Shown here piece by piece: positions 1 through 16,744 of a DNA stretch of 64,000 nt. Position 1 is the stretch's first letter. Each line of letters begins with the position of its first letter. Location of the stretch: assembly GCA_050949055.1 (NCBI GenBank), contig JBMNFA010000001.1:11116-75115 (forward strand). The letters are read 5' to 3'. Made by a program: the position numbers and the translations under genes. Source of the DNA: Bacillota bacterium. Lineage in GTDB: Bacteria; Bacillota; UBA994; UBA5500. The notes beneath the pieces were generated by a model. It was given only the letters and a program-made list of their open reading frames with translations. It ran no database searches and was not told the DNA's origin.

Positions 1-2341
1 CCACGCACGTGGGGGTGAACCGGCAGAGAGTGAGCCAATCTATGTGCCGTTTGAATCTGCCCCACGCACGTGGGGGTGAACCTCGACGCACTTGCCGTCG
101 TACATCGAGGTCATCATCTGCCCCACGCACGTGGGGGTGAACCGCTTTCTTCAAAGATTACACTTTACGTCCCTGCATCTGCCCCACGCACGTGGGGGTG
201 AACCGATCGATCAAGTGATCGATCTTTGCGAATCCCTATCTGCCCCACGCACGTGGGGGTGAACCGTAATTAAACAGACCGCATAGCCCGCCAGCTACAT
301 CTGCCCCACGCACGTGGGGGTGAACCGGCGATGGGCAAGATTGTCGTCGCTGGCCGGCTATCTGCCCCACGCACGTGGGGGTGAACCGATCGTTTGCAAT
401 TTTGCCGCTAACAATGGAAGATCTGCCCCACGCACGTGGGGGTGAACCGACGCTGCCCGGGACGAGATACGCCAAGTGCCTATCTGCCCCCACGCACGTG
501 GGGGTGAACCGTTTAGATATTAGTTAGTAGTATGTAGTATGTAATCTGCCCCACGCACGTGGGGGTGAACCGGCGCTAGACACACAGATTGAGAAAGACG
601 AGATATCTGCCCCACGCACGTGGGGGTGAACCGCGGACGAGCTCAAGGCAGCGGCTCCCTGGCACATCTGCCCCACGCACGTGGGGGTGAACCGCGGACG
701 AGCTCAAGGCAGCGGCTCCCTGGCACATCTGCCCCACGCACGTGGGGGTGAACCGCGAGTGCCTGCTTTCTTCGCCTCTCCATGCATATCTGCCCCACGC
801 ACGTGGGGGTGAACCGGCGGAAGCCGGTGTCAGGCATTAGTTGACCACATCTGCCCCACGCACGTGGGGGTGAACCGTGCCTGTCTATAGCGATATTGGC
901 GAAATACTCATCTGCCCCACGCACGTGGGGGTGAACCGTTTTTCTTCCATTTCCTGTTATACCTCCCTGGCATCTGCCCCACGCACGTGGGGGTGAACCG
1001 TTTGTCTCCAGACCTATCAACGCCCGGTTGTAATCTGCCCCACGCACGTGGGGGTGAACCGTCATCCAGTCCCCCCGGCACATCCTCGACAAGATCTGCC
1101 CCACGCACGTGGGGGTGAACCGTTGGAGAGGTTAATTGAGCATTGCACAGGATGATCTGCCCCACGCACGTGGGGGTGAACCGCAGACTCTGCAGTGGCA
1201 GAGGGACGCGGGGCATCTGCCCCACGCACGTGGGGGTGAACCGTTGTATTGCCCTGTTATGTAACGATAGGCAACATCTGCCCCACGCACGTGGGGGTGA
1301 ACCGTACGCGATCCTCTGCAGCGCCGCCGCCATCATATCTGCCCCACGCACGTGGGGGTGAACCGCCCACCAGGGCAGGAAGGAGCAGGACAAATGAATC
1401 TGCCCCACGCACGTGGGGGTGAACCGCAGTACAACTTGGCCAGTTGATTCGTGTTGTCATATGCCCCACGCACGTGGGGGTGAACCGGGTGTCTTGCTGA
1501 TGCTTGTGTCTTTGGTGCCATCTGCCCCACGCACGTGGGGGTGAACCGTGACACAGCTGTACAAACAGCGTTGGATTTAGGTCTGCCCCACGCACGTGGG
1601 GGTGAACCGCAGGAGGAGTTTTTGATTACCTCCTTATTGATATCTGCCCCACGCACGTGGGGGTGAACCGCAGGAGGAGTTTTTGATTACCTCCTTATTG
1701 ATATCTGCCCCACGCACGTGGGGGTGAACCGGCAGAAGGACTGCTCTAGCGCCGGACCCACCCATCTGCCCCACGCACGTGGGGGTGAACCGCTGGGCAT
1801 CTGGACCATGTCTAGCTGCGTGGCATCTGCCCCACGCACGTGGGGGTGAACCGTAGCCTTTTCGCATATAGCGATTACGGGTGTTATCTGCCCCACGCAC
1901 GTGGGGGTGAACCGATCACTTTGTATGTCCCTGCAACTATCAATGTATCTGCCCCACGCACGTGGGGGTGAACCATCGAGAGGAGCCAACCACATGACCA
2001 CACAGACATCTGCCCCACGCACGTGGGGGTGAACCCCCGACAACCTCACCGAACGGCGAGACCCGGACATCTGCCCCACGCACGTGGGGGTGAACCGACC
2101 GTGAGCAGCACCCGGTTGGATACCAAGGCATCTGCCCCACGCACGTGGGGGTGAACCGGGCCTGTCCGCAGCACGGGCAGGTTTCGTCCTATCTGCCCCA
2201 CGCACGTGGGGGTGAACCGCCTGCACTTGCCCTGTGTGCTGCTGTCAGCATATCTGCCCCACGCACGTGGGGATGAACCGAGCAACTTGGATCGCATCTA
2301 TGCACCGCAGAAATCTGCCCCACGCACGTGGGGGTGAACCG
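1..2341 (+). CRISPR. Type I-E CRISPR array 1: 38 full repeats plus 1 partial, 38 spacers, truncated at the window start
   Basis: 29-bp repeat ATCTGCCCCACGCACGTGGGGGTGAACCG with ~61-bp period and mostly 32-nt spacers. The CCCCACG/CGTGGGG hairpin and ...AACCG 3' end are typical of I-E and imply + strand transcription with the leader left of the window. Confidence 0.98.
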
Positions 2342-2373
2342 TGGCGATGTGAACGGTAATATTTAATGGACAG

Positions 2374-2559
2374 ATTTCGGCCATTTCCAATGGATAAGAT
2401 TACCCACTCCCTACCAACCATTCGGTATACTGGACGGGTCGGAGGGAGAGTGGACAGAATGGTGGGATGGCCTATCTGCGGTAGGATAAGGGAACTCAGA
2501 GAACTAGGTTGTTGGAAGATGCTAAAGGAACCTGCCCCCCCACATGCGAGGGTAAACAG
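2374..2559 (+). ncRNA. Candidate degenerate mini-array (pseudo-repeats at 2374-2401, 2467-2493, 2530-2559)
   Basis: 2530-2559 ACCTGCCCCCCCACATGCGAGGGTAAACAG resembles the repeat. The other two are AT..-hairpin-ATAAG.. units, and the first lies exactly 32 nt after the last true repeat. Confidence 0.4.
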
Positions 2560-2892
2560 TAGGCTTGGAGTGTATTCCCTGTTAACTCATAGAACAAGAT
2601 CAAGCCCATGAATCCTACTTCTCATTTTGGGATGCTACGGTCTAGGGCTTTCTTGTCTCATAATGGCGAATTGTGTAAAGGAAAATCATAGTTGGTTGGC
2701 GAACGTTGTAGACAACTGAGGAGCTTTGGATAGGGTTGGATAGGCAATTGAGAGTCATCGCACTTGGCTCTGCTTGCCGTAATGTTAGTCATGTGAGCTT
2801 ATCTGGGCTGCTGCAAGACACAGAAAGTTCAAGCAGTAGGACAGTATTTGACAGGGTGGGTATTTTACAATGTTGAGGGGGAGGGGGAATTC

Positions 2893-3825
2893 ATGCGCAA
2901 TTATCGGATACTGCCTAAGGTCCGAGACAGTTGGAGCTACCTTTATGTTGAGCATGCCCGGATCGATCAGGAGGATATGGGTATTTGCCTGCATGATGCG
3001 CGTGGCCGGGTTCACGTTCCTTGCGCCTCTCTTTCACTCTTGATGCTGGGCCCGGGCACATCTATTACACACGCTGCAGTAATGACTACGTCGGAAGCAG
3101 GTTGCTTGATTGCCTGGTGTGGTGAACAAGGGATTCGCTTCTATGCTCAAGGATTGGGTGAGACGCGTAGCTCAGCCAATCTCCTCCGACAAGCAGCCTT
3201 ATGGGCTGATGAGGGAAAGCGACTGATGGTAGTACGACGAATGTACGAAATGCGTTTTCCTGAAAGGCTGGAGCCTAACCTTACGCTCAGACAGATCCGA
3301 GGAAAAGAAGGCGCACGGGTTCGCGATGCGTATGCCAAAGCAAGCAGGACCTATGGTGTGCCTTGGTTTGGCCGCAACTATGATCGCAAGGACTGGGACC
3401 GTTCCGATCCAATTAACAGGGCCATATCGGCAGCAAACGCTTGCCTTTATGGCGTGGTTCATGCCGCTGTGGTTGCATCGGGTTATTCACCCGCCCTGGG
3501 TTTTATACACACAGGGAAAATGTTGAGTTTTGTTTATGACGTAGCGGATCTATACAAGACCGAAACAGTGATCCCGGCAGCGTTTCTGGAGACCGGTAGG
3601 GGCGAGGTAGACTTGGAAAGTCGGGTGAGGCGCTGCTGCAGAGACCTGTTTGTTGAAATCAGGTTGTTGCAGCGCATAGTTAATGACCTAGACTCCCTGT
3701 TCGATCTGGAGCATCGTGATGAAGCACCAGATGTCGACCTAGAAAAGGCGTTTCCGGGCCAAATTTGGGACCCTGAAGGAAATGTATCCGGTGGTCACAA
3801 CTACTCTGGGAGAAAGCAGAGATGA
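2893..3825 (+). CDS. cas1: Type I-E Cas1 endonuclease
   Basis: SYLYVEHARI, LMLGPGTSITHAA, QIRGKEGARVR, LGFIHTG, SFVYDVADLYK and C-terminal WD..GGHNY. GAGGGGG RBS precedes ATG 2893. Confidence 0.97.
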   Translation: MRNYRILPKVRDSWSYLYVEHARIDQEDMGICLHDARGRVHVPCASLSLLMLGPGTSITHAAVMTTSEAGCLIAWCGEQGIRFYAQGLGETRSSANLLRQAALWADEGKRLMVVRRMYEMRFPERLEPNLTLRQIRGKEGARVRDAYAKASRTYGVPWFGRNYDRKDWDRSDPINRAISAANACLYGVVHAAVVASGYSPALGFIHTGKMLSFVYDVADLYKTETVIPAAFLETGRGEVDLESRVRRCCRDLFVEIRLLQRIVNDLDSLFDLEHRDEAPDVDLEKAFPGQIWDPEGNVSGGHNYSGRKQR

Positions 3826-6800
3826 TTGTCCTGATTGTAGAGTCGGTGCCTCCTTCGCTGCGCGGGCAATTGAGTAAATGGCTGCTAGAGCCGCAGGCCG
3901 GGGTTTTCGTTGGCAATGTATCGGCTGCAGTTCGGGAGTTGCTGTGGGAGACGGCTTGTCAGCAGGCAGCAGCTGGCAATTGCACATTAATACATTCTGC
4001 CGCTAACGAGCAGGGCTATAGCATCCGTACCTGCGGGGATACCAAGCGGGTGATCGAAGACTGGGAAGGACTATTCCTTGTTCGCCGTCCGAAGGCAGCA
4101 GAGGAAGAGAACCCAGCAAGGACAATGGAACACCCTATAAGTGATGACAAAGAATGCGACGATGCATTTGACCCTATTGCGGAGATAACTGAGGCAAGGA
4201 GCCCTGAGCTCGAAAGGAACCATGAGAATCTACATTTCCTTTTGTGGGGCAAGACCACCCCTTACAAGTCCTTATTAGCACACATGATTGATGTAGGCGT
4301 AGTGGCTCAGTCATTGCTAACCAATGGCTGCATGGCACCGATTGCCCTCACCCTAATGGACCTATTTCAAGCCAGTGAAGAACAGGTTCTCTCGCTAGTA
4401 GGTTTCATAGCTGCACTGCACGACCAGGGCAAGTGCCATCCCCTCTTTCAGGGGATGGGGAAGGGCCTGAGAATCACAGAGACTCTCAAGTCACTGGGGT
4501 GGCTGCAAGATGACATCCGGATGAAATTCAGGCACGAGAAGTACTCGGAGCGCATATTTAGGCGCTTGGCCAAAGGCAGTCGGCTGAGCCGCCATGCAGC
4601 CAGGATGATAGCCGCTACTCTGCGGCTACATCACCAAGGCAAACTTGGAGAAGGGGATGAACCTGAAGAGAGGATTCGGTCGGCTTGGCATGCAATGCAG
4701 GAAAACCTAATGAACTCCGTACGGGAAGTGTTTCCGGCGGAACTTTCGATAGTGTCCAAGTGTAGACATTTCGATTGCGCTGGAGTAATCATTAGCGCCA
4801 TAATCATCCTCGCGGATTGGCTAGCGTCAGGGAACGAGCGATTCCTTCGTCTTGGAGAAGCGCGAAACCTGCAAGCTTATACAAACCGCGCTAGAATTGT
4901 AGCGCTGGAAGTGGTTGCAGCCTGTGGGCTGGGCAGGAGCAAGGCATTGCCGGTGACCGGGGCCTTCTGTGATCTATGGAAGGAGATACCAGCAGCCGGG
5001 GTGAGACCGTTACAGCTGGCATGTGTGGAAGCCTGCCGCGCCTATCCTGGCTCTGGACTGGTGATTGTGGAAGCACCTATGGGCGAGGGGAAGACAGAGG
5101 CAGCTGTCTACATCGCTGCCCATTTGATGAAAACCTACTGCAAGGAAGGGATGTACATTGCGCTGCCTACCGCGGCCACCAGTAATCAGATGCACGGCCG
5201 TATTAGCGACCCTGCTGCAGCAGCCATGCCATGGAGGGAGTGCGCCTGCTGCACGGCATGGCTTGGGCGATCGACCAAGAGACAGCGGTTAACTCCCGCG
5301 CTGCTGTTGGCGCCGAGGATGGCACTGAGGCAGCACGCTGGATGGCCCCGTTACGGAGAGGTCTGCTGGCCCCATACGCGGTTGGCACAATAGACCAAGC
5401 CATGCTTGCGGTAATGCCGGTGAAGTACGGCCTCTTGCGGCTTGTTGGGTGTCGCCAACATAAGGTGCTGGTCCTGGATGAGGTGCATGCGTACGACGCA
5501 TATATGAGCCAGATTATCGAACGCTTGCTCAGCTGGTGTGCGGCGCTGAGGGTGCCAGTCGTCTCTGTTGTCGGCAACTCTGCCCACCAAGAAACGAGAG
5601 GCCTTTCTTGCGCGCCTATGGCGCAGAACAAAGCTCGCAAGTGGATACAAGTTATCCGACGATCACCTGCCTTAGTAATGGCCAGATTAACAGCTTGGCA
5701 GTAAGAGACACGTTCATCAAACGAACGATTGCTATCGACGTTTTACCAATGTTGGGTTGCTGGTCGGAGCTGGCAGCAATGCTATACAGCAAGGTCGCTG
5801 ATGGAGGATGCGTCTGTGTCATTGTCAACACAGTCCCCGATGCTCAAGAACTGTATCAGCAGATCAAACGGGCTGCAATTGACGATGATGACCTCTGGTT
5901 GCGCCTGTTCCATGCTCGCTTCCCTGCAGACCGGCGCCAACAGATCGAGCAGGAGTGTCTTGACCGATTTGGAAAGGGGAACCTCAGGGAACCTGGTAAT
6001 CCCAAGTATAACCGTCCCCCTAGGGCTCTTTTGGTGGCTACCCAAGTGGTAGAACAGAGCCTTGACCTGGATTTTGATGAAATGGCGTCTGCATTAGCCC
6101 CCATCGATCTACTCCTTCAGCGCGCTGGTAGGCTGCATCGGCACGACGGCCGCAGTAGGCCAGCAGGCATGAGGACAGCCAGGTTAACAGTGTTCACTCC
6201 AACCAAACCGGGGGAATATGGTGGGACAGGCTTTGTGTATGCCCCATGGATACTACGTAAGACCGAACATTTCCTTGCAGATAAGAACTCATTATCGGTG
6301 CCAGAAGACATGCGGTTGGCGATCGAAGCGGTTTACAGTGCCGAAGAGCCTGAGACAAGTGAAGGGTACAAAGAGTGGTACGAAATGGTCTACAATGACC
6401 AACTGAACGCTGGGCTGGCAAGAGCCAGTGAATTGCCGCCGCCAACTCCGGATAGCTTTTTTGGGACCCAGAACCGCGGAGGAGGGGGTGCACAGGAGGG
6501 GACTCTGTTTAACGATGACGATGCGATCAGCAAAGTGGCTAGTCTCAAGACCCGATTGGGCGAAAGCAGTACACGGATTGCCCTGCTAGACGAAACCTTG
6601 TTCAAGCAGGCTATGGTGCCGAATCCCTCGGCTCAATTGGCCAAGCAGGTTTTGCTCCGGTCATTGTCTGTGCCATCAAGATTGATCGGTGATTGCGGGG
6701 CAGCCGGCTTCGATGCACCTTATGAAGGGGATGGGTTGCTTAAGGGGGTAGTGCTGCTGAAAATGGTCAATCACCGGTACGTATTTGAGTCAGACCAAGG

Positions 6801-6873
6801 CACTGGTGTACTCACTGAAGACGCAGAGCTTGGAATTCTATTTGAAGGGAGGAAAGATATTGGCAGTTTATGA
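3822..6873 (+). CDS. cas3: Cas2(I-E)-Cas3 fusion (Cas2 + HD nuclease + SF2 helicase), frameshifted several times at ~5210-5610
   Basis: The N-terminus MIVLIVESVPPSLRGQLSKWLLEPQAGVFVG (I-E Cas2) is in frame with HD motifs (LLAH, LHDQGK, RHE, HHQG, ADWLAS) and APMGEGKT. DEVH lies in ORF 5231-5704. VNTV, FHARF, VATQVVEQSLDLDFD and QRAGRLHRH lie in ORF 5536-6873. Confidence 0.9.
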
Positions 6874-8389
6874 TCTGCTGAGCGAACCTTGGATTCCAGT
6901 GGAGACTTTGGATGGAACACGGCAATCACTTGGCATTAGAGAGGTCCTGCTATTTGCTCACAAGTTAAGAAAGGTTAACGCCCCCTCGCCACTGATCACA
7001 TATGGCATCCAACGGATGTTGGTAGCGCTGCTGATGGATGCCTATCGCCCTCGGCTGATAGAGGACTTGGCCGATCTGATGGATGCAGGATTTTATAGCG
7101 AGCACACGGTGGAGCAGTATTTCTCACTTTGCCAGAATGAAGCCAACTGCTTCGATTTGTTTGACCCAGAGAAGCCCTTTTACCAGTCCGCATTTGACAC
7201 TAGGTGGGATAACGACAAGAAAATCAGGCCCGTGGCGCTGCTCATTCATGAAGTTCCCGGCGGGAACAATCACATCCACTTCGATCACCGGCTGGAGGCC
7301 GAGATTGCCCTTTCCCCGGCCGCCTGCGCTCGGGCGTTGTGCGCAGTCAACGTTTTCTGTACAGCTGGGCTGCAAGGTCCTTCATCCATCAATGGGGCCC
7401 CACCCCTCTACGTGCTGCACAAAGGAAAAACGTTGTTTGAAACCTTAACGGGGAGCATGATGGCTGTGCGAGAGTACGAGGGCATACCTTTTGACGATCC
7501 ACCGATAGCTTGGTGTGACCATCACGAGGTGGAGCCAGGTAGGGAAGTGCCCACAACTTCCGTGTTGTACGGCTTGACCTGGCAGGCACGTCGTGTGCTC
7601 CTGATTCCTGATGAGGCCGGGGGAACATGTAGCCAAACAGGGGAGGAATGCCCGGTTGTAGTAAGACGCATGTACTTCCAAAAAGGCTTGAAGTTTACAG
7701 GACATGGCATCTGGCAAGATCCTCATGTGGCATACCTGAGGCGGAAAGACGGCAGCCTGTCCTCTTTGAAGCCACAAGAGGGTCGGGCCCCATGGAGAGA
7801 TATTGCGTCCCTCATGCTAAAGGGCGATCGCGAAGGACAGCATATTGAGCCGATTATCGTCAGCCACTACCGCGATGTTCGCGAGGGCATCGACATGATA
7901 GAGACTCCTGCGTCACTGCAAATATTTGGTCTGGTTACTAATCAGGCTCAATACGGCAGTTGGATGCAAGGGGAACTAGGTCTAGACCAACGGATTATGC
8001 AGAGTGAAGATTTGTCCAGATTTATTGAGCAGGCGATAAGGTTAACCGAAGACATTGCGGCTGATTTGCAGAAGTATATGCAGGACGCTCTAGGAGGAAA
8101 TAAGCAGCGCGATCTTGTAGACCAAATCATTGGTCTGTTCTACTCCTTGGCGCGGGAAGCATTCTTTGAAGAATTGTGCCCGGCTGCTGCCGTTGCCAAC
8201 AGGATGGAAGAAGGATGGGCCAGCAAGTTGAACAACTTGTGGAGAACCAAGCTGAGGAGCTTTGCACTAAGCTCGTATTTGGCGGGAGCTGAGCGCTTGG
8301 GCGGTGCGGCAAGACGTTTGGAACAAAGCGCGCGGGCCGAGTTGCTGTTTAGGAGAAGTCTTAGCAAGACATTGGGGAGGGTTGACTAG
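6860..8389 (+). CDS. cas8e: Cascade large subunit Cas8e/CasA
   Basis: YDLLSEPWIPV, FDLFDPEKPFYQ, WQARRVLL, DPH and RAPWRD motifs. TTG 6860 follows a GGGAGG RBS. Operon position fits. Confidence 0.92.
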   Translation: MAVYDLLSEPWIPVETLDGTRQSLGIREVLLFAHKLRKVNAPSPLITYGIQRMLVALLMDAYRPRLIEDLADLMDAGFYSEHTVEQYFSLCQNEANCFDLFDPEKPFYQSAFDTRWDNDKKIRPVALLIHEVPGGNNHIHFDHRLEAEIALSPAACARALCAVNVFCTAGLQGPSSINGAPPLYVLHKGKTLFETLTGSMMAVREYEGIPFDDPPIAWCDHHEVEPGREVPTTSVLYGLTWQARRVLLIPDEAGGTCSQTGEECPVVVRRMYFQKGLKFTGHGIWQDPHVAYLRRKDGSLSSLKPQEGRAPWRDIASLMLKGDREGQHIEPIIVSHYRDVREGIDMIETPASLQIFGLVTNQAQYGSWMQGELGLDQRIMQSEDLSRFIEQAIRLTEDIAADLQKYMQDALGGNKQRDLVDQIIGLFYSLAREAFFEELCPAAAVANRMEEGWASKLNNLWRTKLRSFALSSYLAGAERLGGAARRLEQSARAELLFRRSLSKTLGRVD

Positions 8390-8960
8390 ATGGCCGGGAC
8401 TGACTTGTTCAAACAGGCGAGCAGCTTCGTCGACGCACTAGAGCTTTTGTCTGCTGGTGAACGGGCAGCGCTGAAGCGGGATGTAGGCAAGACGTTGTCC
8501 TTCGCAAGTGGCAACGCGTTAGTGGCGTTTTACCGAGCTCTTCCGAATGGGGTAAGCGCGGGCCTCGAAGGCAGGTTCTTCGCTGTCGCTTGCACCAGCT
8601 GTCTCTGGAAGAGTGCGCAACTCGCGGGAAACAAGAGACCCTATCAGGAATGCCTCAAGGCAGATTAGGGCGGATGGGTACGAGAGTTTTGATAAAAGAG
8701 TAAATTCGCTACTGGATTGTCATTGGGATGACAACGACGGCTACTTGCAGACTAAGCTTTGCCGGATTAGCAAGCAGATGCGGCAGAAAGACCTGCTTCC
8801 GGACTTTAGAGGATTACTGCTAGATTTGGTAGGCTGGAACGATCCGCAACGGAGAGTTCAGAGGCGCTGGGCCAGGGCGTACTACGGCGAGAGGAAGGCT
8901 CGCCTCAACAACAAACGAAAGCAGGGAGGAAGAGAACCATGCTGTTTGAGTTCCACATGA
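8390..8960 (+). CDS. cas11: Cascade small subunit Cas11/CasB, frameshifted near 8655
   Basis: LSAGERAALKR in ORF 8390-8668, and FDKRVNSLL..DFRGLLLDLVGW..VQRRWARAYY in ORF 8613-8960. Confidence 0.85.
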
Positions 8961-10057
8961 TTAAGAATTTCCCGCCGACCAACCTCAACCGTGACGACAC
9001 CGGGAGCCCGAAGTCCTGTTTCTTCGGGGGCGTGCAGCGGGCCCGGATCTCTAGCCAGTGCCTGAAGCGCAGTTGGCGGCAATCTCCGGTGTTCAAAGCG
9101 GCGGTTGACCAGCTTGGTATCCGTACCAGGAAACTGCCAGACCTGGTTTCGGAGGAGCTTCGCAAGCGTGGCATCGATGAGGAGTATGTCCAAGCGGCGG
9201 CTCTCAAGGTGACCGGCTTTGGCAACAGGAAGGGGACCGAGAATAAGGATGGAATCACTGCCCAAATCATGTTCTTCTCTAGGGAAGATATTCTGGCGGT
9301 GGCAGAGCGGGTGGAGCAGGCTATTAGGGAAGCAGGGAGTCTGGACAAGTTTCAGAAGATGAACGTCAAGGATTGGCAGAAGAAGATGGAGAACGTTATG
9401 ACCCGTCCAATTACCCTGGATATGGCACTCTTTGGCCGCATGGTTACCTCGGATGCTTTTGCGGATGTCGAAGCAGCTATGCAGGTCGCTCATGCCATCT
9501 CTACTCATTCGGTCAACCAAGAGAGTGATTTCTACACCGCTGTGGATGACTTGGTGAGTGGAGCAAGCGACGATGATGCCGGCGCCGGCATGATGGGCGA
9601 TACCGATTTCAATGCCAGCTGCTACTACATGTACGCAGCTTTGGATATGGATCAATTGGGGCAAAACCTGAGGCATTCCCCTGATGTTCTTGCTGACGCC
9701 GGGAAAGTAGTTTCATGCTTGCTGGAAGCCATGGCGTTTACAAATCCTTCGGGTAAACAGAACAGCTTCGCCGGCCACGTACTCCCTGACTTGCTTTACG
9801 TGGAAGTGAAGGAAAGGAAGATTCCTGTAAATTACGCCAATGCCTTTGTTGAGCCTGCAAGGCCTTCCGGTGAGCGTGATCTGGTTGCTGAAAGCGCCCA
9901 TAGGCTGGCGCGCGAAATCGAGAGTGTTGACCGTGACTTTGGCATGGAGGCTAACAAACGCTTGTGGTTCTGCCGTAAACATGGTGTGAAGGCCCCAGCT
10001 TCTGCCACGGTGGTGGGAAGCTTCAGAGAGCTATTGACTGAGTTTGCAGGCGTTTGA
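8939..10057 (+). CDS. cas7: Cascade backbone Cas7/CasC
   Basis: NLNRDDTGSPK, RARISSQCLKR, DMALFGRM, QVAHAISTH, DFYTAVDD, PSGKQNSFA. Confidence 0.97.
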   Translation: MLFEFHMIKNFPPTNLNRDDTGSPKSCFFGGVQRARISSQCLKRSWRQSPVFKAAVDQLGIRTRKLPDLVSEELRKRGIDEEYVQAAALKVTGFGNRKGTENKDGITAQIMFFSREDILAVAERVEQAIREAGSLDKFQKMNVKDWQKKMENVMTRPITLDMALFGRMVTSDAFADVEAAMQVAHAISTHSVNQESDFYTAVDDLVSGASDDDAGAGMMGDTDFNASCYYMYAALDMDQLGQNLRHSPDVLADAGKVVSCLLEAMAFTNPSGKQNSFAGHVLPDLLYVEVKERKIPVNYANAFVEPARPSGERDLVAESAHRLAREIESVDRDFGMEANKRLWFCRKHGVKAPASATVVGSFRELLTEFAGV

Positions 10058-10067
10058 GGTGAGGAGA

Positions 10068-10739
10068 ATGCCAATACCAATTCTCCTGTTGCGTCTGGAG
10101 GGCCCTCTCCAAAGCTGGGGAGAACGGGCCCGCTGGGACTATCGCGATTCTTCACCGTTTCCCACCAAATCAGCTGTTATCGGACTAATTGCCTGCGCTA
10201 TGGGTATATCGCGAGCAAGCACAGAGATCGTTGAAATGCATGCCGCTCTGAAGATGGGCGTAAGGGCTGATAGACCTGGGACCATGATGACTGATTATCA
10301 GACCGTCTCTGGAATAATCCGTACTGCAGGGGGCGGCCAGCGGGGTAACAAGGGAGAGGTAACGACCATAATTTCGCAGAGACAATACATACAGGACGGT
10401 GCGTTTCTGGTCGCAGTGACTGGCGAGAAGGGGTTGTTGCAGCGTTGCGCAGCTGCACTACAGCATCCAGTCTGGCCGATCTTTCTCGGTAGAAAAAGCT
10501 GCCCCCCAACCCGTCCTGTCTTTGAGGGAATGACAGAGCAGTATGAATCGTTGTTAGAAGCGCTACGTATTGAGCCGGTGGTCAAACGCAGCGAGGGATG
10601 TTCCCTATTGTGCGAAATCGAAGATGTACAAGGAAACATCATGCGCAGGGACATCGCAACAGCGAGCCCTGGCAGGCAGTATCTGCAGCGCAGGGTCCAA
10701 TTGACGACGGTCGAACCGCAGGGGAAGGGGGTTTCCTGA
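10068..10739 (+). CDS. cas5: Cascade Cas5/CasD
   Basis: LLLRLEGPLQSWG, PTKSAVIGLIACAMG, DYQTV, FLGRKSCPP. Confidence 0.96.
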   Translation: MPIPILLLRLEGPLQSWGERARWDYRDSSPFPTKSAVIGLIACAMGISRASTEIVEMHAALKMGVRADRPGTMMTDYQTVSGIIRTAGGGQRGNKGEVTTIISQRQYIQDGAFLVAVTGEKGLLQRCAAALQHPVWPIFLGRKSCPPTRPVFEGMTEQYESLLEALRIEPVVKRSEGCSLLCEIEDVQGNIMRRDIATASPGRQYLQRRVQLTTVEPQGKGVS

Positions 10740-11380
10740 TGTACCTATCTTGCTTACACCTAGACATCGCCCATCCTGCTGCTCGTCAATGTCTAAAGGA
10801 CTGTCAGGATATGCACCGTACACTCATGCGAGCCTTTCCAGATGAATATCAGGGATCATCCCGAGAAGCCTGTGGTATGTTATACCGTGTTATGCGTGAA
10901 CGCACCGGAGTGAGGCTATTCGTGTTATCAGAGCATTGCCCCGACTGGCGCGCTATCTCCGATCAGGGTTTTGTAATTAGAGGGGTAAAGGATGTCTCTA
11001 ATCTTCCGGCGTCCTTTACGCGTGGAAGGCGCTTTGCTTTCGATGCTTTACTCTGCCCGACTAAGAAAGTCTCACGACAAGGACGTAATGGCCGGCGGGC
11101 ATTTCTTTCATCTGCTGATGACCGTTTACAGTGGCTTGAACGAAAGGCTACGCAAGCTGGCTTTCTCATTGAGTGGGTGCGTGAGGAAGGGCAAAGCAAG
11201 GAGCGTGGTGTGCACCAACCGGACAGAGGTGGGACCATGTACCATGCCGGTGTACGTTACAGAGGAGTGCTTGTGGTTGAAGACAGTAAGGCTTTCTGCA
11301 AAGCATTCGCTAGAGGCATAGGGCCTGGGAAAGCCTACGGGTTTGGGATGCTGATGCTGTTTAAGGCAACTTCAGCATGA
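10739..11380 (+). CDS. cas6e: Cas6e/CasE crRNA processing endoribonuclease
   Basis: MYLS start, MHRTLM, LYRV, WLERK and the G-rich loop GIGPGKAYGFGML. Confidence 0.96.
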   Translation: MYLSCLHLDIAHPAARQCLKDCQDMHRTLMRAFPDEYQGSSREACGMLYRVMRERTGVRLFVLSEHCPDWRAISDQGFVIRGVKDVSNLPASFTRGRRFAFDALLCPTKKVSRQGRNGRRAFLSSADDRLQWLERKATQAGFLIEWVREEGQSKERGVHQPDRGGTMYHAGVRYRGVLVVEDSKAFCKAFARGIGPGKAYGFGMLMLFKATSA

Positions 11381-11531
11381 CACGAGTACAAGCTGCCACA
11401 ACTACCTGTTGAGATCAGCCCGGATAACGCAAGCAAACTACCGCCCAATGCAGCTGTGCTTCTGGTATGCTAACTGATACTTACGGGGCCTTTTCCGCAA
11501 ACGGCCCCGTGTTTATTGGGTTTTTTCAAGT
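11381..11531 (+). promoter_or_regulatory. Leader of CRISPR array 2
   Basis: Non-coding, ends in ...TTCAAGT before the first repeat. Has a TGGTATGCT extended -10-like element near 11463 and the hairpin ACGGGGCC..GGCCCCGT. Confidence 0.6.
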
Positions 11532-11732
11532 ATCTGCCCCACGCACGTGGGAGTGAACGCAACAGAAGAATCTTCTGCTTACCGACAGTATATCTGCCCC
11601 ACGCACGTGGGAGTGAACGGTTGTGGCTGACTGTTAACATGGTTAACTACCATCTGCCCCACGCACGTGGGGGTGAACCGCTAGTCAGGCTGAATCGTGG
11701 ATAAGTTGTGGAATCTACCCCACGCACGTGGG
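11532..11732 (+). CRISPR. Type I-E CRISPR array 2 (4 repeats, 3 spacers, last repeat truncated)
   Basis: Repeats at 11532 and 11592 (variant ..GGGAGTGAACG), 11652 (consensus) and 11713 (ATCTACCCCACGCACGTGGG, interrupted). Confidence 0.93.
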
Positions 11733-11951
11733 TGTGAGTGTTAATCGGAAAGTTGACCACCGCGCTAATCCAAAAGTTGGCCACCCGGCCCGGCGATGGG
11801 ACCCGTCAGGGTCCCGCAAGCAGGGGCAATCGAATCCATCTGGTTGATGGGAGGGGCACGGGATTAGGCTATCCTGGCCAGCAGGCTCCCCTGACCCACA
11901 AAATGCGCTTCCTCGGCGAGGGGGACCTGCTGGCCAGAGCCTGAACTGACA
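11733..11951. mobile_element. Possible IS21-like end or MITE remnant interrupting the last repeat
   Basis: Starts TGT and has tandem AAAGTTGACCACC / AAAGTTGGCCACC boxes, as in IS21-family ends. No transposase is present. Confidence 0.4.
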
Positions 11952-12034
11952 TCTACCTGCGTAGGGTGAACCGCAAACATCCCTTGCGCGCCCTACAAAC
12001 AGTGTACCTTCAACGCCGAGATGTGAAACGAGCC

Positions 12035-12775
12035 ATGGCTGTGCGAACTATAGCCACCTTAGGAGGTGATGATCCTACGAGTTGCTTAAGCAGTCTGCTT
12101 TGTAGGCATGGACAGATATTGATTGTAGACATAGAGACCACTGGCTTGAATCCGGCCAAGGATGAAGTTGTTGAAGTTGCGGCCATCTTGGTGCGAGAAG
12201 GAGCGCAGGATGAGTTGCGCGCTACAGTAGTCCTGGATAATCTGGTTACGTTGCCTTCTGGATACCGCATCCCGAGTGCCGTCAGCGCACTGACGGGAAT
12301 CACAGACTCCATGCTAGCTGCTTATGGAGTGCCCCGTCGACAAATTGCTGCTCAACTCACTCCGTTGCTCTTGGGCAATGTTCTTGTCGTTGCCCACAAT
12401 GTCCAGTTTGATATGTCATTCGTTCATGCTCTCTTGGCAAAGGAAAGTTTCGCAGTGCCAGAACGTTCATTGATCTTGGACACCTTGACAGTGTTCAGAG
12501 ATAGGCGAAGCTATCCCCATACGCTTGCGGATGCCATAAGTGCATATCGGTTGTCTGTGCCAGTAGGAACACCACACAGGGCGTTGGCAGACGCAAGAGT
12601 TGTGTTACGCTTGCTGCAAGCGATGGCCGTGGAAAATGACGACCTATTGTCCTACGTCAATGTCATCGGATACAACCCCCGCTATGGGGTCAGTGGCCCT
12701 CGGCTGGCTGGCGTCAGGTATGTGCCGCAGCCCCTTGTCAACCACAGAAGGTCCAAGCTGCCCAAATTCAAGTAA
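12035..12775 (+). CDS. DEDDh (DnaQ-like) 3'-5' exonuclease, start uncertain
   Basis: DIETTG, AHNVQFD, LDTL and HRALAD motifs. Confidence 0.9.
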   Translation: MAVRTIATLGGDDPTSCLSSLLCRHGQILIVDIETTGLNPAKDEVVEVAAILVREGAQDELRATVVLDNLVTLPSGYRIPSAVSALTGITDSMLAAYGVPRRQIAAQLTPLLLGNVLVVAHNVQFDMSFVHALLAKESFAVPERSLILDTLTVFRDRRSYPHTLADAISAYRLSVPVGTPHRALADARVVLRLLQAMAVENDDLLSYVNVIGYNPRYGVSGPRLAGVRYVPQPLVNHRRSKLPKFK

Positions 12776-12915
12776 TTCCGCATTGATGCAAACTCATTTC
12801 TGTACCAGTACTTCTCCAGCATACAGACCATCTGTAACCTATTTCCTCCTACCCAATGGAACAATTGCCCCGGCCATGCGTCAATAGGGCAAAGACCATT
12901 GTGGAGGTTATCAAC

Positions 12916-14175
12916 ATGAGAAGGTTTTTCTCCCTGTTGCTGGTGCCTTTGTTGCTGCTCGGCATGGTTAGCCCCGCGCTCGCTGCGAATTACCGCGATA
13001 TGGCCGAGGCTTACCTTAACCAGAAATATGGTGGCAACGACGCCACCATCGAGATGCATCAGGACGGAATAATGGAGCTGGAGTTCACGGGCCAATCCTT
13101 CTGGTACGTGGAATACACTGTTGTGCCGGCGGGGGCACCTGCCACGGGCGCGACGGGCGAGAAGCCTGTGCCGGATATCGGCCGGACGGAGCCGCCGCTG
13201 GCACTGCCAGAAGCCAGGGACCTGCCCCTGGCCACAATAGAGCCAGCGGTTATGCCGAGACTGGACAGTTATCATCACAATTACGTCTACGGCGTGCTGT
13301 ATATCCACGTGGAGTCCGGCAAAATCCTGGAGATGGACGAGATGGAGCCCTATTTCACGGAGGAAGCTGCTTTGGCTGAGCAAGAGTGGGCCAGGCTGCG
13401 GCAGGAGGCAGGCAAGCTGGAAGTCTCGCTCTACCGCAAACTTATGACCTTGGCCGCTACTGAAAGCGTCAAGGTTACCATACACCCAGCTCTAACCATC
13501 ACCGCCGAGGTCGAGGCGCAGTTTGCTATACTGCAAGACCAGTACCCGCGCGTATTCGCAGAGATGAACATTGAATTGGGTCAGTTTCTGGATGGCACCT
13601 GGGGAGCGGCTGGCGAGGGCAAGGTGATGCCGGCTATGGACTGTGTCGTAGGATACGCCACTACTGTTACCCCAGCCGTGAGCGTGGATCCGCCTGTGCG
13701 AACTCCCCTGGGCGACGATCCGGTGCCTCCTGTGCCACCCGGGAAAAACGACAGCCAGTACAACGAGCAATACTGGCAGGAGCACAACGCTTTCTGGGCA
13801 GGGATGGAGCAATTGCGCCTGATGACCATGGCCGATTCATTGCGGGAGATCTCTGCCGCGCTGGAAGATATGGGGGTTGCCTATACGGGCACCGATTACT
13901 ACATCTCGGCGGAACTGACAGCGACGCAAGTCCGGGCCATCGCCGAGCATCAGGCTGTGGGAGTGGTCTACGAGGAACTCGGCTATGCGCATGCGATGGA
14001 CGCCAATATGGCCTTGCGCGGCAGGGTGGAGACGGACCAGCTGGCCGTAGCTCCGGCCATGAATGCGGAAGCCGCCCCGGAGCCTGCCGCGGTGAACAGC
14101 CGTGTGCCTTTGATCGTAGGCGGATTGGCAGTCGGCTTGGCGGCAGTGGTGGTCAGCAAACGCAGGCAGGCATAG
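12916..14175 (+). CDS. Exported, C-terminally membrane-anchored hypothetical protein
   Basis: GGAGG RBS, signal peptide ending in ALA, C-terminal hydrophobic segment followed by KRR. Confidence 0.8.
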   Translation: MRRFFSLLLVPLLLLGMVSPALAANYRDMAEAYLNQKYGGNDATIEMHQDGIMELEFTGQSFWYVEYTVVPAGAPATGATGEKPVPDIGRTEPPLALPEARDLPLATIEPAVMPRLDSYHHNYVYGVLYIHVESGKILEMDEMEPYFTEEAALAEQEWARLRQEAGKLEVSLYRKLMTLAATESVKVTIHPALTITAEVEAQFAILQDQYPRVFAEMNIELGQFLDGTWGAAGEGKVMPAMDCVVGYATTVTPAVSVDPPVRTPLGDDPVPPVPPGKNDSQYNEQYWQEHNAFWAGMEQLRLMTMADSLREISAALEDMGVAYTGTDYYISAELTATQVRAIAEHQAVGVVYEELGYAHAMDANMALRGRVETDQLAVAPAMNAEAAPEPAAVNSRVPLIVGGLAVGLAAVVVSKRRQA

Positions 14176-14399
14176 TTGATGGTAGGCACAGCAAGGGCGT
14201 GCCGCCCAGGTTCTAGGAGGAACGTGGGGGGACACGCCCGTTTTGCTGCCGCGTCTACTCTGGGAGAGTGGGAGGTGAGCCGAGGGAGCATCTGTTAGCA
14301 GCAGATGCACGAGTTCCCGCTTGCAGACGGAAATTTCAGATAGCATTTGACCGCCGCAGCCACTCTCCCTGCGGCGGTCAGGCTCTTAGTTGGTGCTGC

Positions 14400-14879
14400 T
14401 CAGTTACCGGTCAGCGACAGGATGATCTGGGCAACGATGGTGCCGCCCAGATAAGTGCCGGCAAAAGTGATCAGGGCGATGACCACAATGCTTATGCCCT
14501 GTTTCCGGAAAGCATCCATGTCTTTGCCCAATGAGATGCCGGCAAAAGCCAGGATGGGGGTACAGAGGGCAAGCAGATTGACCTTGTTTACCTGCGTCAC
14601 AAAGTAATCCGCGATTGGCGAAATGCTGGGGACGCCAACCAGAATCGAAAGCAATGAGATATAGATGATGGTCGGTATCTTCAGCGAGGAATGTCTCTTG
14701 ACGAAATCGTCGACCATGCAGCCGATGACGATGATCACAAACAGCATGCCCAGTGCCGGGAAGATCTCCCACGGCATGATCGGCGCGCCCTTCTTCACGG
14801 AGACAATGTAGTTGCCGACGGAGGCAAAGAGACCGCTCAGGACCAATACCTTTATCCTGGTAATCCACAGATCCTTCAT
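14400..14879 (-). CDS. Membrane protein, partner of the DUF3100-like gene
   Basis: Highly hydrophobic 159 aa, start overlaps the stop of the upstream gene. Confidence 0.8.
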   Translation of the reverse strand: MKDLWITRIKVLVLSGLFASVGNYIVSVKKGAPIMPWEIFPALGMLFVIIVIGCMVDDFVKRHSSLKIPTIIYISLLSILVGVPSISPIADYFVTQVNKVNLLALCTPILAFAGISLGKDMDAFRKQGISIVVIALITFAGTYLGGTIVAQIILSLTGN

Positions 14880-15688
14880 TAGCGTGCCACCTCCTTACCG
14901 GCGGGCTTGGTAATTGCCGGTTCCTTTTTCAGTACCTTATACAGGAGATTGGCCAGGGGCAGGGACACAAACAGGGTAATGTACATCCCAGTCACGCCGC
15001 CCACTATTTGTGCGCCCGCAGTCAACGTCTGCAGCTCGTTGGCGAGCTCGGGGAAAGCCTGAACAGTAGCTCCCAGGATGGCGCTCATCATCGAGGCGGA
15101 GCCAACGCCAGCACCGATGGCCAGCGCCTGAGGAGTGAAGATGCCCAGGCCGCAGACAATCGATGCCAACAACCCACAGAAAATGGTGCCGAGCAGAGTG
15201 CCAGTGATATAGCCTCCCATTATGCCCTGGCCCTCGGGCGAGTCCAGCCCATAGATACTGCCGATAATAGCGATCGCGTTTTCTCTGCTCATGGAGAAAC
15301 CGCATCCAACCAGCGCGCGACCCATTTTGAACACCCAAACCCCCACGGGGATGGAGACAAAGATGAACAAGATCAGCTTGCCAATGGCCTGGCCGATCAA
15401 GGCAGGGCCTGCGTTAAACAGTTGGTTCAGATTGGGTCCGATGGTGGAACCCATCTTGGCGGTGAGATACATGACCGAGATTGTAATGTACGGAGAAGCG
15501 GTAACCATCATCTGGCGATCGATCACTCTTACTTTAGCGAGCACAAGACCTATCACCAGGGCATACAGCATGGGCAGGAGGGTAAAACTCAGTTTACCCA
15601 TCTTTACCGGCTGCGATCCGATCAGCTCACTGACAACAACCATGGCGAAGCAGAGTGCAAACACTTTCCAGTCCTTAAAAAGCTTCAC
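14879..15688 (-). CDS. DUF3100-like membrane protein (putative transporter subunit)
   Basis: Multi-TM with LLPMLYA, YGLDSPEGQG and GVGSASMM. GAGGAGG RBS. Confidence 0.8.
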   Translation of the reverse strand: MKLFKDWKVFALCFAMVVVSELIGSQPVKMGKLSFTLLPMLYALVIGLVLAKVRVIDRQMMVTASPYITISVMYLTAKMGSTIGPNLNQLFNAGPALIGQAIGKLILFIFVSIPVGVWVFKMGRALVGCGFSMSRENAIAIIGSIYGLDSPEGQGIMGGYITGTLLGTIFCGLLASIVCGLGIFTPQALAIGAGVGSASMMSAILGATVQAFPELANELQTLTAGAQIVGGVTGMYITLFVSLPLANLLYKVLKKEPAITKPAGKEVAR

Positions 15689-15926
15689 AGATTCTCCTCC
15701 TCATTGAATTTGGTTGGTGCCAACCGCTCAGTGATTCCGTTCTATCAATATGCCTTGCTGCCTGCCTCCTTTCCCTTTGTTTTTTCCGTTCCCAACTTTC
15801 CGATATTTCGCTGCTGCAGATGTTCCGCGCGCGCCAATAGAATCCCTTTGGCGATGGTCAGAAAAATTGCTATATTCATAACAGTGCATCAGTGGTAGTA
15901 CGCAAACGCAGGTAGGTGTGATAGCG

Positions 15927-15970
15927 GACAGCAAGAGAGCCTTCAGAAACCTGAAGGCTCTCTTGCTGTC
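15927..15970. terminator. Long hairpin terminator after tatD-like gene
   Basis: GACAGCAAGAGAGCCTTCAG / CTGAAGGCTCTCTTGCTGTC, a perfect 20-bp stem. Confidence 0.7.
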
Positions 15971-15994
15971 TAGGAGGGTGGGGGTATGGGCAGA

Positions 15995-16744
15995 TTACGG
16001 GATTGGCCAAGCGATATGGTCCAATACCCGCATGAGGTTGTCGTAGACCGTTGCATGCATTTCTTCCTCAGCAACACCCTTGATCATTGCCGCTTCCCCC
16101 AGTATGCCCCGCAGCACTTGGGGAACATCAGCCATGCTGCAGGCTTCTCCGGTGCCCCAGGCGACCGATTCCGTACCATCGGTCTCGGTGAGCAGGCGGG
16201 GGAGGGGTACCTGGCGGCAAACCTCGCGCACTGCCGGGTTCAGCCTGATATCCGGCCCCAGGGTAAAGTAGCAGTCCAGGTCGACGTAGTCGGCCAGCTG
16301 CTCCGCCGGTCCAGAATACCAGTGTACGATGATCAGTGGGGGAGTGTATTTCCGCAGCCACTGGGCAATCTCGGCCTCTGCGCCCTTGGTGTGCAGCATC
16401 ACCGGCTTGTTCAGTTTTACCGCCGTCTGCAACTGATGCAGGAACGACTGGCGCTGTATGTCCATGGGGGCGCTGCTCCAAACCGTGTCCAGCCCAATCT
16501 CACCGATAATCGGTGCCTGTGCCAGCCACTGGTCCATGCAGTCTAGGGGATATTGGTGGGGCTGCCAGGGGCTCATCCCAAAGGTGGGGATGATGCGCGG
16601 GTGAGCTTTGGCCAGCTCGGACACCGGCTGACACTGGTCCGGATTGGTGGCTGCCACCAGTTGCCATAGGCCTTGCTGGGCCAGCTGGATAGCTGCTTCC
16701 TCCTGTCCGGGGCGAATATGGGTATGGGCATCAACTAGGTTCAA
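15995..16744 (-). CDS. TatD-family hydrolase
   Basis: DAHTH, IGEIGLD, LHTK, VHWYSG, LTETD. Confidence 0.9.
   Translation of the reverse strand: MNLVDAHTHIRPGQEEAAIQLAQQGLWQLVAATNPDQCQPVSELAKAHPRIIPTFGMSPWQPHQYPLDCMDQWLAQAPIIGEIGLDTVWSSAPMDIQRQSFLHQLQTAVKLNKPVMLHTKGAEAEIAQWLRKYTPPLIIVHWYSGPAEQLADYVDLDCYFTLGPDIRLNPAVREVCRQVPLPRLLTETDGTESVAWGTGEACSMADVPQVLRGILGEAAMIKGVAEEEMHATVYDNLMRVLDHIAWPIP

Follow-up and report, generated by a model that had tools for sequence, protein, structure and literature searches.

Type I-E is the model for primed adaptation, and the debate on how DNA is handed over from Cas3 to Cas1-Cas2 continues to draw on non-covalent complexes and on predictions. In canonical I-E systems, Cas3 joins Cas1-Cas2 only non-covalently, and the primed acquisition complex of Thermobifida fusca reportedly holds Cas3 with Cas1-Cas2 in the same non-covalent way. 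PMC12661925 describes Cas1-Cas2 and Cas3 as cooperating in I-E even when they are unfused, and AlphaFold3 is used there to ask whether the Cas3 of Escherichia coli touches Cas1-Cas2. The same paper, from 2025, calls Cas2 "uniquely fused" to Cas3 in type I-F, where the integrase carries its own nuclease-helicase, which is expected to couple interference to spacer uptake (PMC12661925). Within I-E, a Cas2-DEDDh "trimmer-integrase" related to that of Megasphaera NM10 appears in PMC10284694, and the main text of a 2025 classification (PMC12669027) names the variants I-E2 (Cas5-HNH), I-E3 (Cas11-PD-(D/E)xK) and I-E5 (a telomeric-transposon CRISPR-associated transposon, CAST), while "I-E4", implied by the numbering, is missing from that main text. 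Here we analyze a stretch of 64,000 nucleotides from a Bacillota genome (contig C1:11116-75115, referred to below in its whole length as the window) with a I-E operon in which one gene codes for both Cas2 and Cas3. We consider it probable that this locus is a I-E variant whose adaptation genes lead the operon and whose cas2e is fused in frame to cas3 through a linker predicted to be disordered, a reading that stands directly on the I-E ancestry, the conserved gene order, the domains present and a junction that four independent assemblies show intact.

The Cas2e-Cas3 junction and the protein families of the operon

The open reading frame (ORF) that begins at 3822 codes for Cas2e, then a linker, and then the Cas3 HD domain, with no stop between them, and the models for Cas2e and for the Cas3 HD domain both match within this one ORF. 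An earlier note on this DNA, made from its letters alone, had described a Cas2 of ~90 amino acids (aa) that continues through an acidic linker of ~50 aa into the HD and helicase domains of Cas3. This description holds up to the HD domain (PF09707, PF18019, no stop) and fails in the window for the helicase, as the ORF drops out of the cas3 frame at ~5208 and terminates at 5393. The linker is made up of 51 aa, among them 15 aspartates or glutamates and 5 lysines or arginines. It is predicted to be disordered; in an AlphaFold2 model of P0001, an intact homologue of 1003 aa that is 72% identical and was used as the tblastn query, the linker residues 91-129 have a predicted local distance difference test (pLDDT) score of <50. 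The junction was checked on Logan contigs of four runs (X1 to X4) from four studies of bioreactor metagenomes, placed on 3800-9000. Across 3985-4619, these contigs show no substitution or indel relative to the window (X1 and X2 cover this part completely, X3 covers 4119-4352, and X4 covers 3800-4266), which includes the region 4080-4250 singled out by the earlier note; as far as each of the four runs covers the linker, it contains neither a stop nor an indel. The Cas2e-linker-Cas3 junction is real.

A fused gene might nevertheless be fused on paper only, with a translational restart in the linker or a cleavage giving separate Cas2 and Cas3 proteins. The linker holds an in-frame ATG at 4125 (Met102) with a purine-rich sequence 5' of it (GAGGAAGAG, AAGGA), and its predicted disorder would suit a cleavage, but Met102 is not conserved in the closest orthologue, P0001, the linker varies between 3 and 51 aa across 66 fused proteins (those of the window and P0001 being the longest) and the alignments show no conserved start. 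A restart would moreover not give Cas2 a stop, and a promoter and terminator scan from array 1 to the linker (2300-4300) stayed at chance level, with two promoter-like sites against 1.8 expected and no terminators. Last, the fusion is kept across lineages of 30 to 40% identity, which argues for selection on the joined form. We therefore regard separate products as very improbable.

Family assignment relied on Pfam and NCBIfam, with most NCBIfam scores far above the curated cut-offs, and it bore out the order cas1-cas2/3-cas8e-cas11-cas7-cas5-cas6e of the earlier note (Table 1). I-E membership was found for Cas8e, Cas11, Cas7e, Cas5e and Cas6e, for Cas1e and Cas2e, and for the HD-containing Cas3, while the typical, although not defining, order of canonical I-E operons (cas3, cascade genes, cas1, cas2) is not the one found here. 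The Cas2e domain scores 73.6 bits on TIGR01873 (NCBIfam cut-off, 33.15), shares 68 to 87% identity with its counterparts in other fused proteins and shows a ferredoxin-like strand-helix pattern in the Cas2 part of the P0001 model. In Cas1, the acidic and histidine residues are present as read by eye. Cas3 is of the I-E type with an N-terminal HD domain, whose motif histidines and aspartates are invariant in an alignment of 23 sequences, and its helicase motifs are present (Walker A GEGKT, DEVH, SAT and QRAGR). The three cas3 frames of the window cover positions 23-357, 366-464 and 484-750 of the PRK09694 model, respectively, and the summed score lies below the whole-protein cut-off because of the frame breaks. 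Cas7e, Cas5e and Cas6e are all above their NCBIfam cut-offs, and the second piece of cas11 matches PF09485 (E value, 3.8e-10) and TIGR02548 (28.7 bits; cut-off, 28.5). A 29-nt repeat ending in AACCG with 32-nt spacers is typical of I-E, and the repeats of the locus follow this pattern.

The genes are tightly packed. The cas1 start, ATG at 2893, is preceded by a GGAGG-like site (gggggagggggaattc), and its stop (3825) overlaps the ATG of the next ORF at 3822 (ATGA). The likely start of cas8e is a TTG at 6860 behind GGGAGG, overlapping the end of cas2-cas3; cas5e starts at TTG 10044 or ATG 10068, and the cas6e match begins at residue 48 of the ORF 10598-11380, which is the Met at 10739.

Table 1. 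Features of the locus, with positions counted in the window (E, E value)
Feature	Position	Strand	Evidence or remark
CRISPR array 1 (window part)	1..2341	+	29-nt I-E-type repeat ATCTGCCCCACGCACGTGGGGGTGAACCG, 32-nt spacers, 61-nt period
cas1e	2893..3825	+	TIGR03638 cas1_ECOLI, 390.5 bits (cut-off 215.6); Pfam Cas_Cas1
cas2e-cas3 fusion gene	3822..6873	+	Single 1014-aa ORF in the population; three frames in the window
Cas2e domain, aa 1-90	3822..4091	+	PF09707 (Cas_Cas2CT1978) over aa 1-86, E 1.8e-30
Acidic linker, aa 91-141	4092..4244	+	51 aa; holds the internal ATG 4125
Cas3 HD nuclease domain, aa 142-341	4245..4844	+	PF18019 (Cas3_HD), E 2.1e-27
Cas3 superfamily 2 (SF2) helicase and C-terminal domain	4845..6873	+	PF22590, E 5.2e-34; PRK09694
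Divergent patch	5195..5607	+	19 substitutions (17 synonymous) and 7 one-base insertions relative to covering contigs
cas8e (cse1)	6860..8389	+	PF09481, E 3.8e-70; TIGR02547, 122 bits (cut-off 70)
cas11 (cse2)	8390..8960	+	Split in the window by extra bases 8659 and 8895
cas7e	8939..10057	+	PF09344, E 3.5e-109; TIGR01869, 275 bits
cas5e	10044..10739	+	PF09704, E 1e-50; TIGR01868, 173 bits
cas6e	10739..11380	+	PF08798, E 2.3e-44; TIGR01907, 77 bits
CRISPR array 2	11532..11741	+	4 repeats: two variant, one consensus, one degenerate
DEDDh (DnaQ-like, RNase_T family) exonuclease	11966..12775	+	PF00929, E 8.7e-19

Frame breaks in cas3 and cas11

In the window, cas3 is distributed over three frames (3822-5207, 5219 to ~5565, and 5539-6870 in tblastn with P0001, the third frame ending at 6873) and cas11 over two pieces (8390-8668 and 8613-8960); the earlier note missed the breaks in both genes. 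Over 3800-9000, the differences between the window and the contigs are confined to three patches (5195-5607, 8587-8659 and 8888-8956) that add up to ~550 bp, and the ~4.6 kb flanking them are identical or differ at 2 sites. Nine single bases of the window are lacking in every covering contig (5208, 5219, 5440, 5455/5456, 5459, 5563, 5607, 8659 and 8895). Those at 5208 and 5219 are missing in both covering runs (X1 and X2), those at 5440, 5459 and 5563 in all four runs, each of which also lacks one base at 5455 (X1) or 5456 (X2 to X4), those at 5607 and 8659 in all three covering runs (X1 to X3), and that at 8895 in three runs (X1, X2 and X4). All nine indels are thus one-base insertions in the window, with no deletions. 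When the X1 differences are applied, cas2-cas3 becomes one ORF of 1014 aa (3822-6873), colinear with residues 1-1003 of P0001 at 71.7% identity, and cas11 codes for a protein of 185 aa that ends near 8949, just where cas7 starts; the N terminus of cas7, under the third patch (8888-8956), is unchanged.

The substitutions behave differently from the indels. As 17 of the 19 in the cas3 patch are synonymous (16 fall at third codon positions), purifying selection appears to have acted on the patch, and seven real frameshifts in the same stretch are difficult to reconcile with it. The substitutions look like real strain polymorphism under selection, while the nine one-base insertions are very probably errors of the assembly or its consensus. 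We take it that in the three patches, at low coverage, a minor haplotype was followed by the assembly; the organism would then encode an intact Cas2-Cas3 of 1014 aa, the breaks of the window being consensus errors within patches of another strain's haplotype.

The seven extra bases in cas3 and two in cas11 could also be taken at face value, as those of a decaying CRISPR-Cas system that has lost interference and keeps only remnants. We consider this unlikely, although two further observations would fit it: the downstream array has only four repeats, three of them variant, and a comparison of the whole 10.7-kb array region with 50,697 phage records gave no spacer target. The indels, however, are all one-base insertions without a single deletion, gathered in ~550 bp between flanks that hardly differ, the substitutions of the cas3 patch are not distributed as in a decaying gene, intact genes are found in four independent assemblies, and the array upstream is of great size (164 exact repeat cores from C1:3365 to C1:13433).

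Three other explanations were considered and rejected. Programmed frameshifting in cas3 or cas11 does not apply, as the covering contigs simply lack the extra bases. Diversity-generating (adenine-specific) mutagenesis does not account for the substitutions, which are mostly synonymous and affect A and T about equally and so show no strand bias. Nor are the substitutions pure sequencing noise, being mostly synonymous; only the indels look like errors. As a side observation, the three patches may flag local haplotype or consensus problems elsewhere in the assembly.

Ancestry and distribution of the fusion

Despite a Cas2 fused to Cas3, as in I-F, the fusion is built from I-E-type domains. The window Cas1 scores 390.5 bits on the cas1_ECOLI model versus 74.4 on cas1_YPEST (cut-off, 150), the cas3_yersinia model has no matches to the window pieces, and none of the I-F families (Cas1f, Cas3f, Cas8f, Cas5f, Cas7f and Cas6f, without cas11) describes the locus, whose effectors are those of I-E and which contains cas11. 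The best structure matches of P0001 are I-E Cas3 (4q2c, E value 1.5e-87; 4qqw, 1.1e-74) and E. coli Cas2 (6e-18), whereas I-F Cas2/3 aligns with it at an E value of 5e-7 over ~90 helicase residues only. Its AlphaFold2 model (pLDDT, 72.9) has target-normalized template modeling (TM) scores of 0.73 to 0.79 to I-E Cas3 versus 0.36 to 0.43 to I-F Cas2/3 chains. A Cas1 tree was built from 69 loci, of which 18 have cas1-cas2 directly 5' of cas3; 17 of these 18 group in a single clade (Shimodaira-Hasegawa-like approximate likelihood ratio test [SH-aLRT], 96 to 99), together with L103, a contig that ends after cas2. When the tree is rooted with 12 I-F Cas1 sequences, no other I-E group is nested as deeply as this clade, and at least 10 canonical I-E branches split off in succession before it. 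Because of this nesting, the likeness of the fusion to I-F is convergent, and its origin is independent of I-F; this part of the earlier note is borne out by the Cas1 scores, the structure matches and the rooted tree.

The opposite direction, that these loci are an ancestral form from which I-F Cas2/3 descends, is extremely unlikely in our view. The layout is I-F-like (cas1, cas2-cas3, effector genes, arrays on both sides), and PMC3150331 relates I-E and I-F by Cas1 phylogeny, but with the I-F outgroup the clade lies at the most nested position within I-E and not near its base. The Cas3 halves are nearest to unfused I-E Cas3, and all Cascade genes belong to I-E families, cas11 included. We know of no cas11 in I-F.

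Two unfused loci bear on how the variant may have arisen. In the Cas1 tree, L052 branches as the sister of all other members of the fused-locus clade, and this metagenome-assembled genome (MAG) of Bacillota (L052:8944-13801) contains cas1, a free cas2 of 92 aa, a 6-repeat array with a repeat nearly identical to that of the window, and a free cas3 of 917 aa; it is a plausible pre-fusion stage. The exception to the clade is L004 (L004:7346-11175, a Selenomonas ruminantium MAG), with cas1, cas2 (105 aa) and cas3 (869 aa), where a 29-nt overlap occurs without fusion; as its Cas1 groups with canonical Clostridia I-E loci, it would represent a separate relocation of the adaptation genes. The variant would have arisen within I-E when cas1-cas2 moved in front of cas3; an unfused order with an array between cas2 and cas3 exists in L052, and loss of the spacer region would then fuse the genes.

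The fused locus belongs to a recurrent family. The database search proposed by the earlier note returned proteins with both domains, as 65 of the 120 top-ranking longer proteins homologous to the N-terminal part carry PF09707 and PF18019 (977 to 1043 aa), the few named ones coming from MAGs labeled Symbiobacteriaceae, Lawsonibacter and Firmicutes ZCTH02-B6. Their database names are plain Cas3 or hypothetical protein, and pipelines that rely on such names may report cas2 as missing from fused loci. In an exhaustive HMMER search of 1.84 billion cluster representatives (clusters at 50% identity), 21 of the 149 others among the 150 listed were fused, some of them belonging to the divergent lineage D described below. 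A scan of metagenome contigs gave 23 loci, namely 15 single-ORF fusions, 2 broken ones with the same layout, 3 canonical and 3 cut off (two pairs, L095/L100 and L104/L107, look like duplicates), and homologous loci therefore do not all keep cas2 and cas3 separate. Immediately 5' of the fused gene lies cas1 in all 16 of the 17 fused-layout loci that hold the upstream region; L101 starts inside the fused gene, hence its upstream gene is not seen. The fused-layout loci that reach far enough contain I-E cas8e, cas7, cas5 and cas6e downstream, eight have a CRISPR array 3' of cas6e, and several also have one before cas1. One of the broken loci, L106:9073-17549, has the fused layout with many broken genes (cas1, cas2, cas3 and cas7 in two pieces each), which points either to a decayed copy or to sequence rich in errors. 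The 80 best genome loci comprise 48 canonical, 29 cut off and 3 with cas1-cas2 before cas3 (L005 fused, L052 and L004 unfused), so that the canonical order cas3, cascade genes, cas1, cas2 occurs in 48 of the 51 that can be ordered.

The many members of the family do not fit a one-off event, and the Cas3 halves do not fit one simple fusion. Trees of these halves were built from 121, 42 and 66 sequences, and they divide the fused proteins among three separate clades and then four, A (the window and P0001), B (14 sequences), C (50 sequences) and D (11 sampled sequences), each with unfused nearest neighbors; the unfused P0123 is sister to clade A (SH-aLRT, 98). An approximately unbiased (AU) test rejected a single clade of A, B and C (log likelihood difference ΔlnL, 440; P = 2e-41) and did not reject A and B as one clade (P = 0.19). 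The window Cas1, in turn, nests among lineage C loci and is 78 to 81% identical to that of L089, depending on the method; between the window and L089, identity is 81% in the Cas2 domain, 27% in the HD domain and ~40% in the helicase. Since the fused Cas3 halves fall into four lineages, module exchange at the linker is suggested, and the simplest account of these sequences is that recombination in or close to the linker would have combined one Cas1-Cas2 module lineage with different Cas3/Cascade modules, at a later stage than the first fusion. The alternative would be independent fusions of the same Cas1-Cas2 module.

Lineage D fusions are more divergent and shorter (877 to 958 aa), with a linker of ~15 to 20 aa and a composition rich in K, N and I, and were seen in metagenomes only (P0135, P0141, P0146, P0157 to P0159, P0166, P0192, P0193, P0196, P0198, P0202, P0211, P0220, P0235, P0257 and P0262). 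A word-based search gave 14 matches, all metagenomic, of which 13 were fused, and lineage D was found neither in 400 genomes of the phylum nor in viral contigs.

Taken together, a fuller reading is that Cas2e-Cas3 fusions are an undescribed I-E variant, convergent with I-F, in which one Cas1-Cas2 module has been joined to at least three Cas3/Cascade lineages, a fourth fused lineage also existing; on this reading we are evenly divided. If true, it would mean that in the CRISPR subtype studied best, a machine for primed acquisition with integrase and nuclease covalently joined has been selected for repeatedly. Several points count against these interpretations. In the window itself, cas3 and cas11 are broken into several frames, the best-covering run may come from the same sample as the window, and the four runs come from similar habitats. 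The linker contains the in-frame ATG 4125 behind its purine-rich sequence. Species genomes seldom contain the fusion (1 of 40 relatives), and it is absent from the 400 genomes sampled from the phylum (0 of 400), and without phage-matching spacers recent activity of the locus is not demonstrated. The trees are "quick" or FastTree searches under LG+G4, and the A+B grouping was defined after the tree had been seen. Slower evolution of Cas1 and Cas2 accounts for part of the identity contrast with L089, although not for the conflict between trees. Finally, a single-sequence hidden Markov model (HMM) did not find the DEDDh gene described below beside other fused loci.

Genome setting, proposed mechanism and known systems

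The genome (2.65 Mb in 9 contigs, 99.97% complete) has no cas1, cas2 or cas3 besides this locus, which consists of an array, cas1, cas2-cas3, cas8e, cas11, cas7, cas5, cas6e, a mini-array and a DEDDh exonuclease gene. Array 1 extends upstream beyond the window to C1:~3361, and its leader lies at that distal end; L125 shows the first repeat together with a leader of ~160 bp. Its last repeat ends at 2341, 550 bp before the tight plus-strand cas operon, and the cas1-proximal end has variant repeats and a degenerate repeat-like stretch at ~2531-2558. Two pairs of identical adjacent spacers (634-665/695-726 and 1610-1641/1671-1702) correspond to duplications of a repeat-spacer unit. Array 2 lies ~150 bp 3' of cas6e, behind a hairpin and a T-run. 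Upstream of array 1 and outside the window, the C terminus of a WYL-family regulator (Pfam WCX, E value 2.5e-15; C1 ~2801-3199, L125:2-400) ends ~160 bp before the first repeat, and WYL and WCX domains are fused to several unfused Cas3 homologues (P0090, P0094, P0100 and P0115). Over 2001-12500, the G+C content of the cas operon (0.51 to 0.57) is mostly below the average of contig C1 (0.572), against 0.59 to 0.61 in the array and the downstream genes, as could be expected if the operon had been acquired horizontally.

By homology with E. coli Cas1-Cas2, analogy with I-F Cas1-Cas2/3 and the priming biology of I-E, we infer a covalent Cas1-Cas2/3 priming complex. Two Cas2 domains would dimerize between two Cas1 dimers, as in the E. 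coli integrase, and each integrase would carry two Cas3 helicase-nucleases on flexible acidic tethers, as in I-F. Cascade (Cas8e, Cas11, Cas7, Cas5 and Cas6e with the CRISPR RNA [crRNA]) would form the R-loop and recruit the Cas3 moiety, and the DNA fragments made by Cas3 would pass directly to the attached integrase, in primed or interference-driven adaptation.

In this scheme the DEDDh exonuclease may trim prespacers, a possible accessory role by analogy with the trimmer-integrase. Its gene stands alone directly 3' of the mini-array and closes the region delimited in the earlier note, which ends at 12775 without mention of this ORF (11966-12775). The protein is 29 to 31% identical to the DEDDh part of a Cas2e-DEDDh fusion (L085, with PF09707 and PF00929 in Pfam) and to a stand-alone DEDDh near cas3 in L104; in L104/L107, the relative lies upstream of cas3. 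Separately, among 401 genomes from the phylum, 19 have a Cas2e match, in 11 of them within an open frame of 261 to 326 aa (for example, L128, L130, L133 and L135 to L137). These frames are probably Cas2-DEDDh fusions, L085 being the one checked with Pfam, and if so that fusion would be far commoner in the phylum than Cas2-Cas3.

The fused locus represents, apparently, an undescribed family of I-E variants. We found no description of a natural I-E Cas2-Cas3 fusion in the literature as far as main texts go, and to that extent the variant proposed by the earlier note stands; that it is already listed somewhere, for instance as "I-E4," is conceivable, and we rate this as rather doubtful. A fused variant would come as a moderate surprise to specialists, and it opens the coupling of Cas3 and integrase in I-E to direct tests, as a natural fused family is a direct comparative test of what tethering adds. 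One adaptation module repeatedly joined to different Cas3 lineages would also be a clean case of module shuffling within a single gene.

Like I-E2, I-E3 and I-E5, the present family is a subtype I-E variant defined by a domain fusion or association. Unlike in those variants, Cas5 and Cas11 show only their own families in Pfam and Cas3 is present; no telomeric-transposon association of the I-E5 kind was seen among the ORFs of window positions 1 to 16000. The trimmer-integrase resembles it in that the C terminus of Cas2e bears an enzyme acting on prespacer DNA, and two Cas2-DEDDh chains, 8fyc (E value, 4e-14) and 8fy9 (2.5e-13), are among the matches to the Cas2 domain of P0001, but here the partner is Cas3 and the DEDDh gene of the window is separate. 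With canonical I-E (E. coli K-12 and T. fusca), the locus shares the eight protein families, the 29-nt repeat and the 32-nt spacers, and it differs in having cas1 and cas2 before cas3 and cas2 fused to cas3. As in I-F (Pseudomonas aeruginosa and Pectobacterium atrosepticum), the C terminus of Cas2 is connected via a flexible linker to the HD-helicase of Cas3, with cas1 immediately upstream and the effector genes downstream. Unlike in I-F, every protein belongs to I-E families (the Cas1f model stays below its cut-off), cas11 and a 29-nt repeat are present, and the linker reaches up to ~50 aa versus ~10 in I-F.

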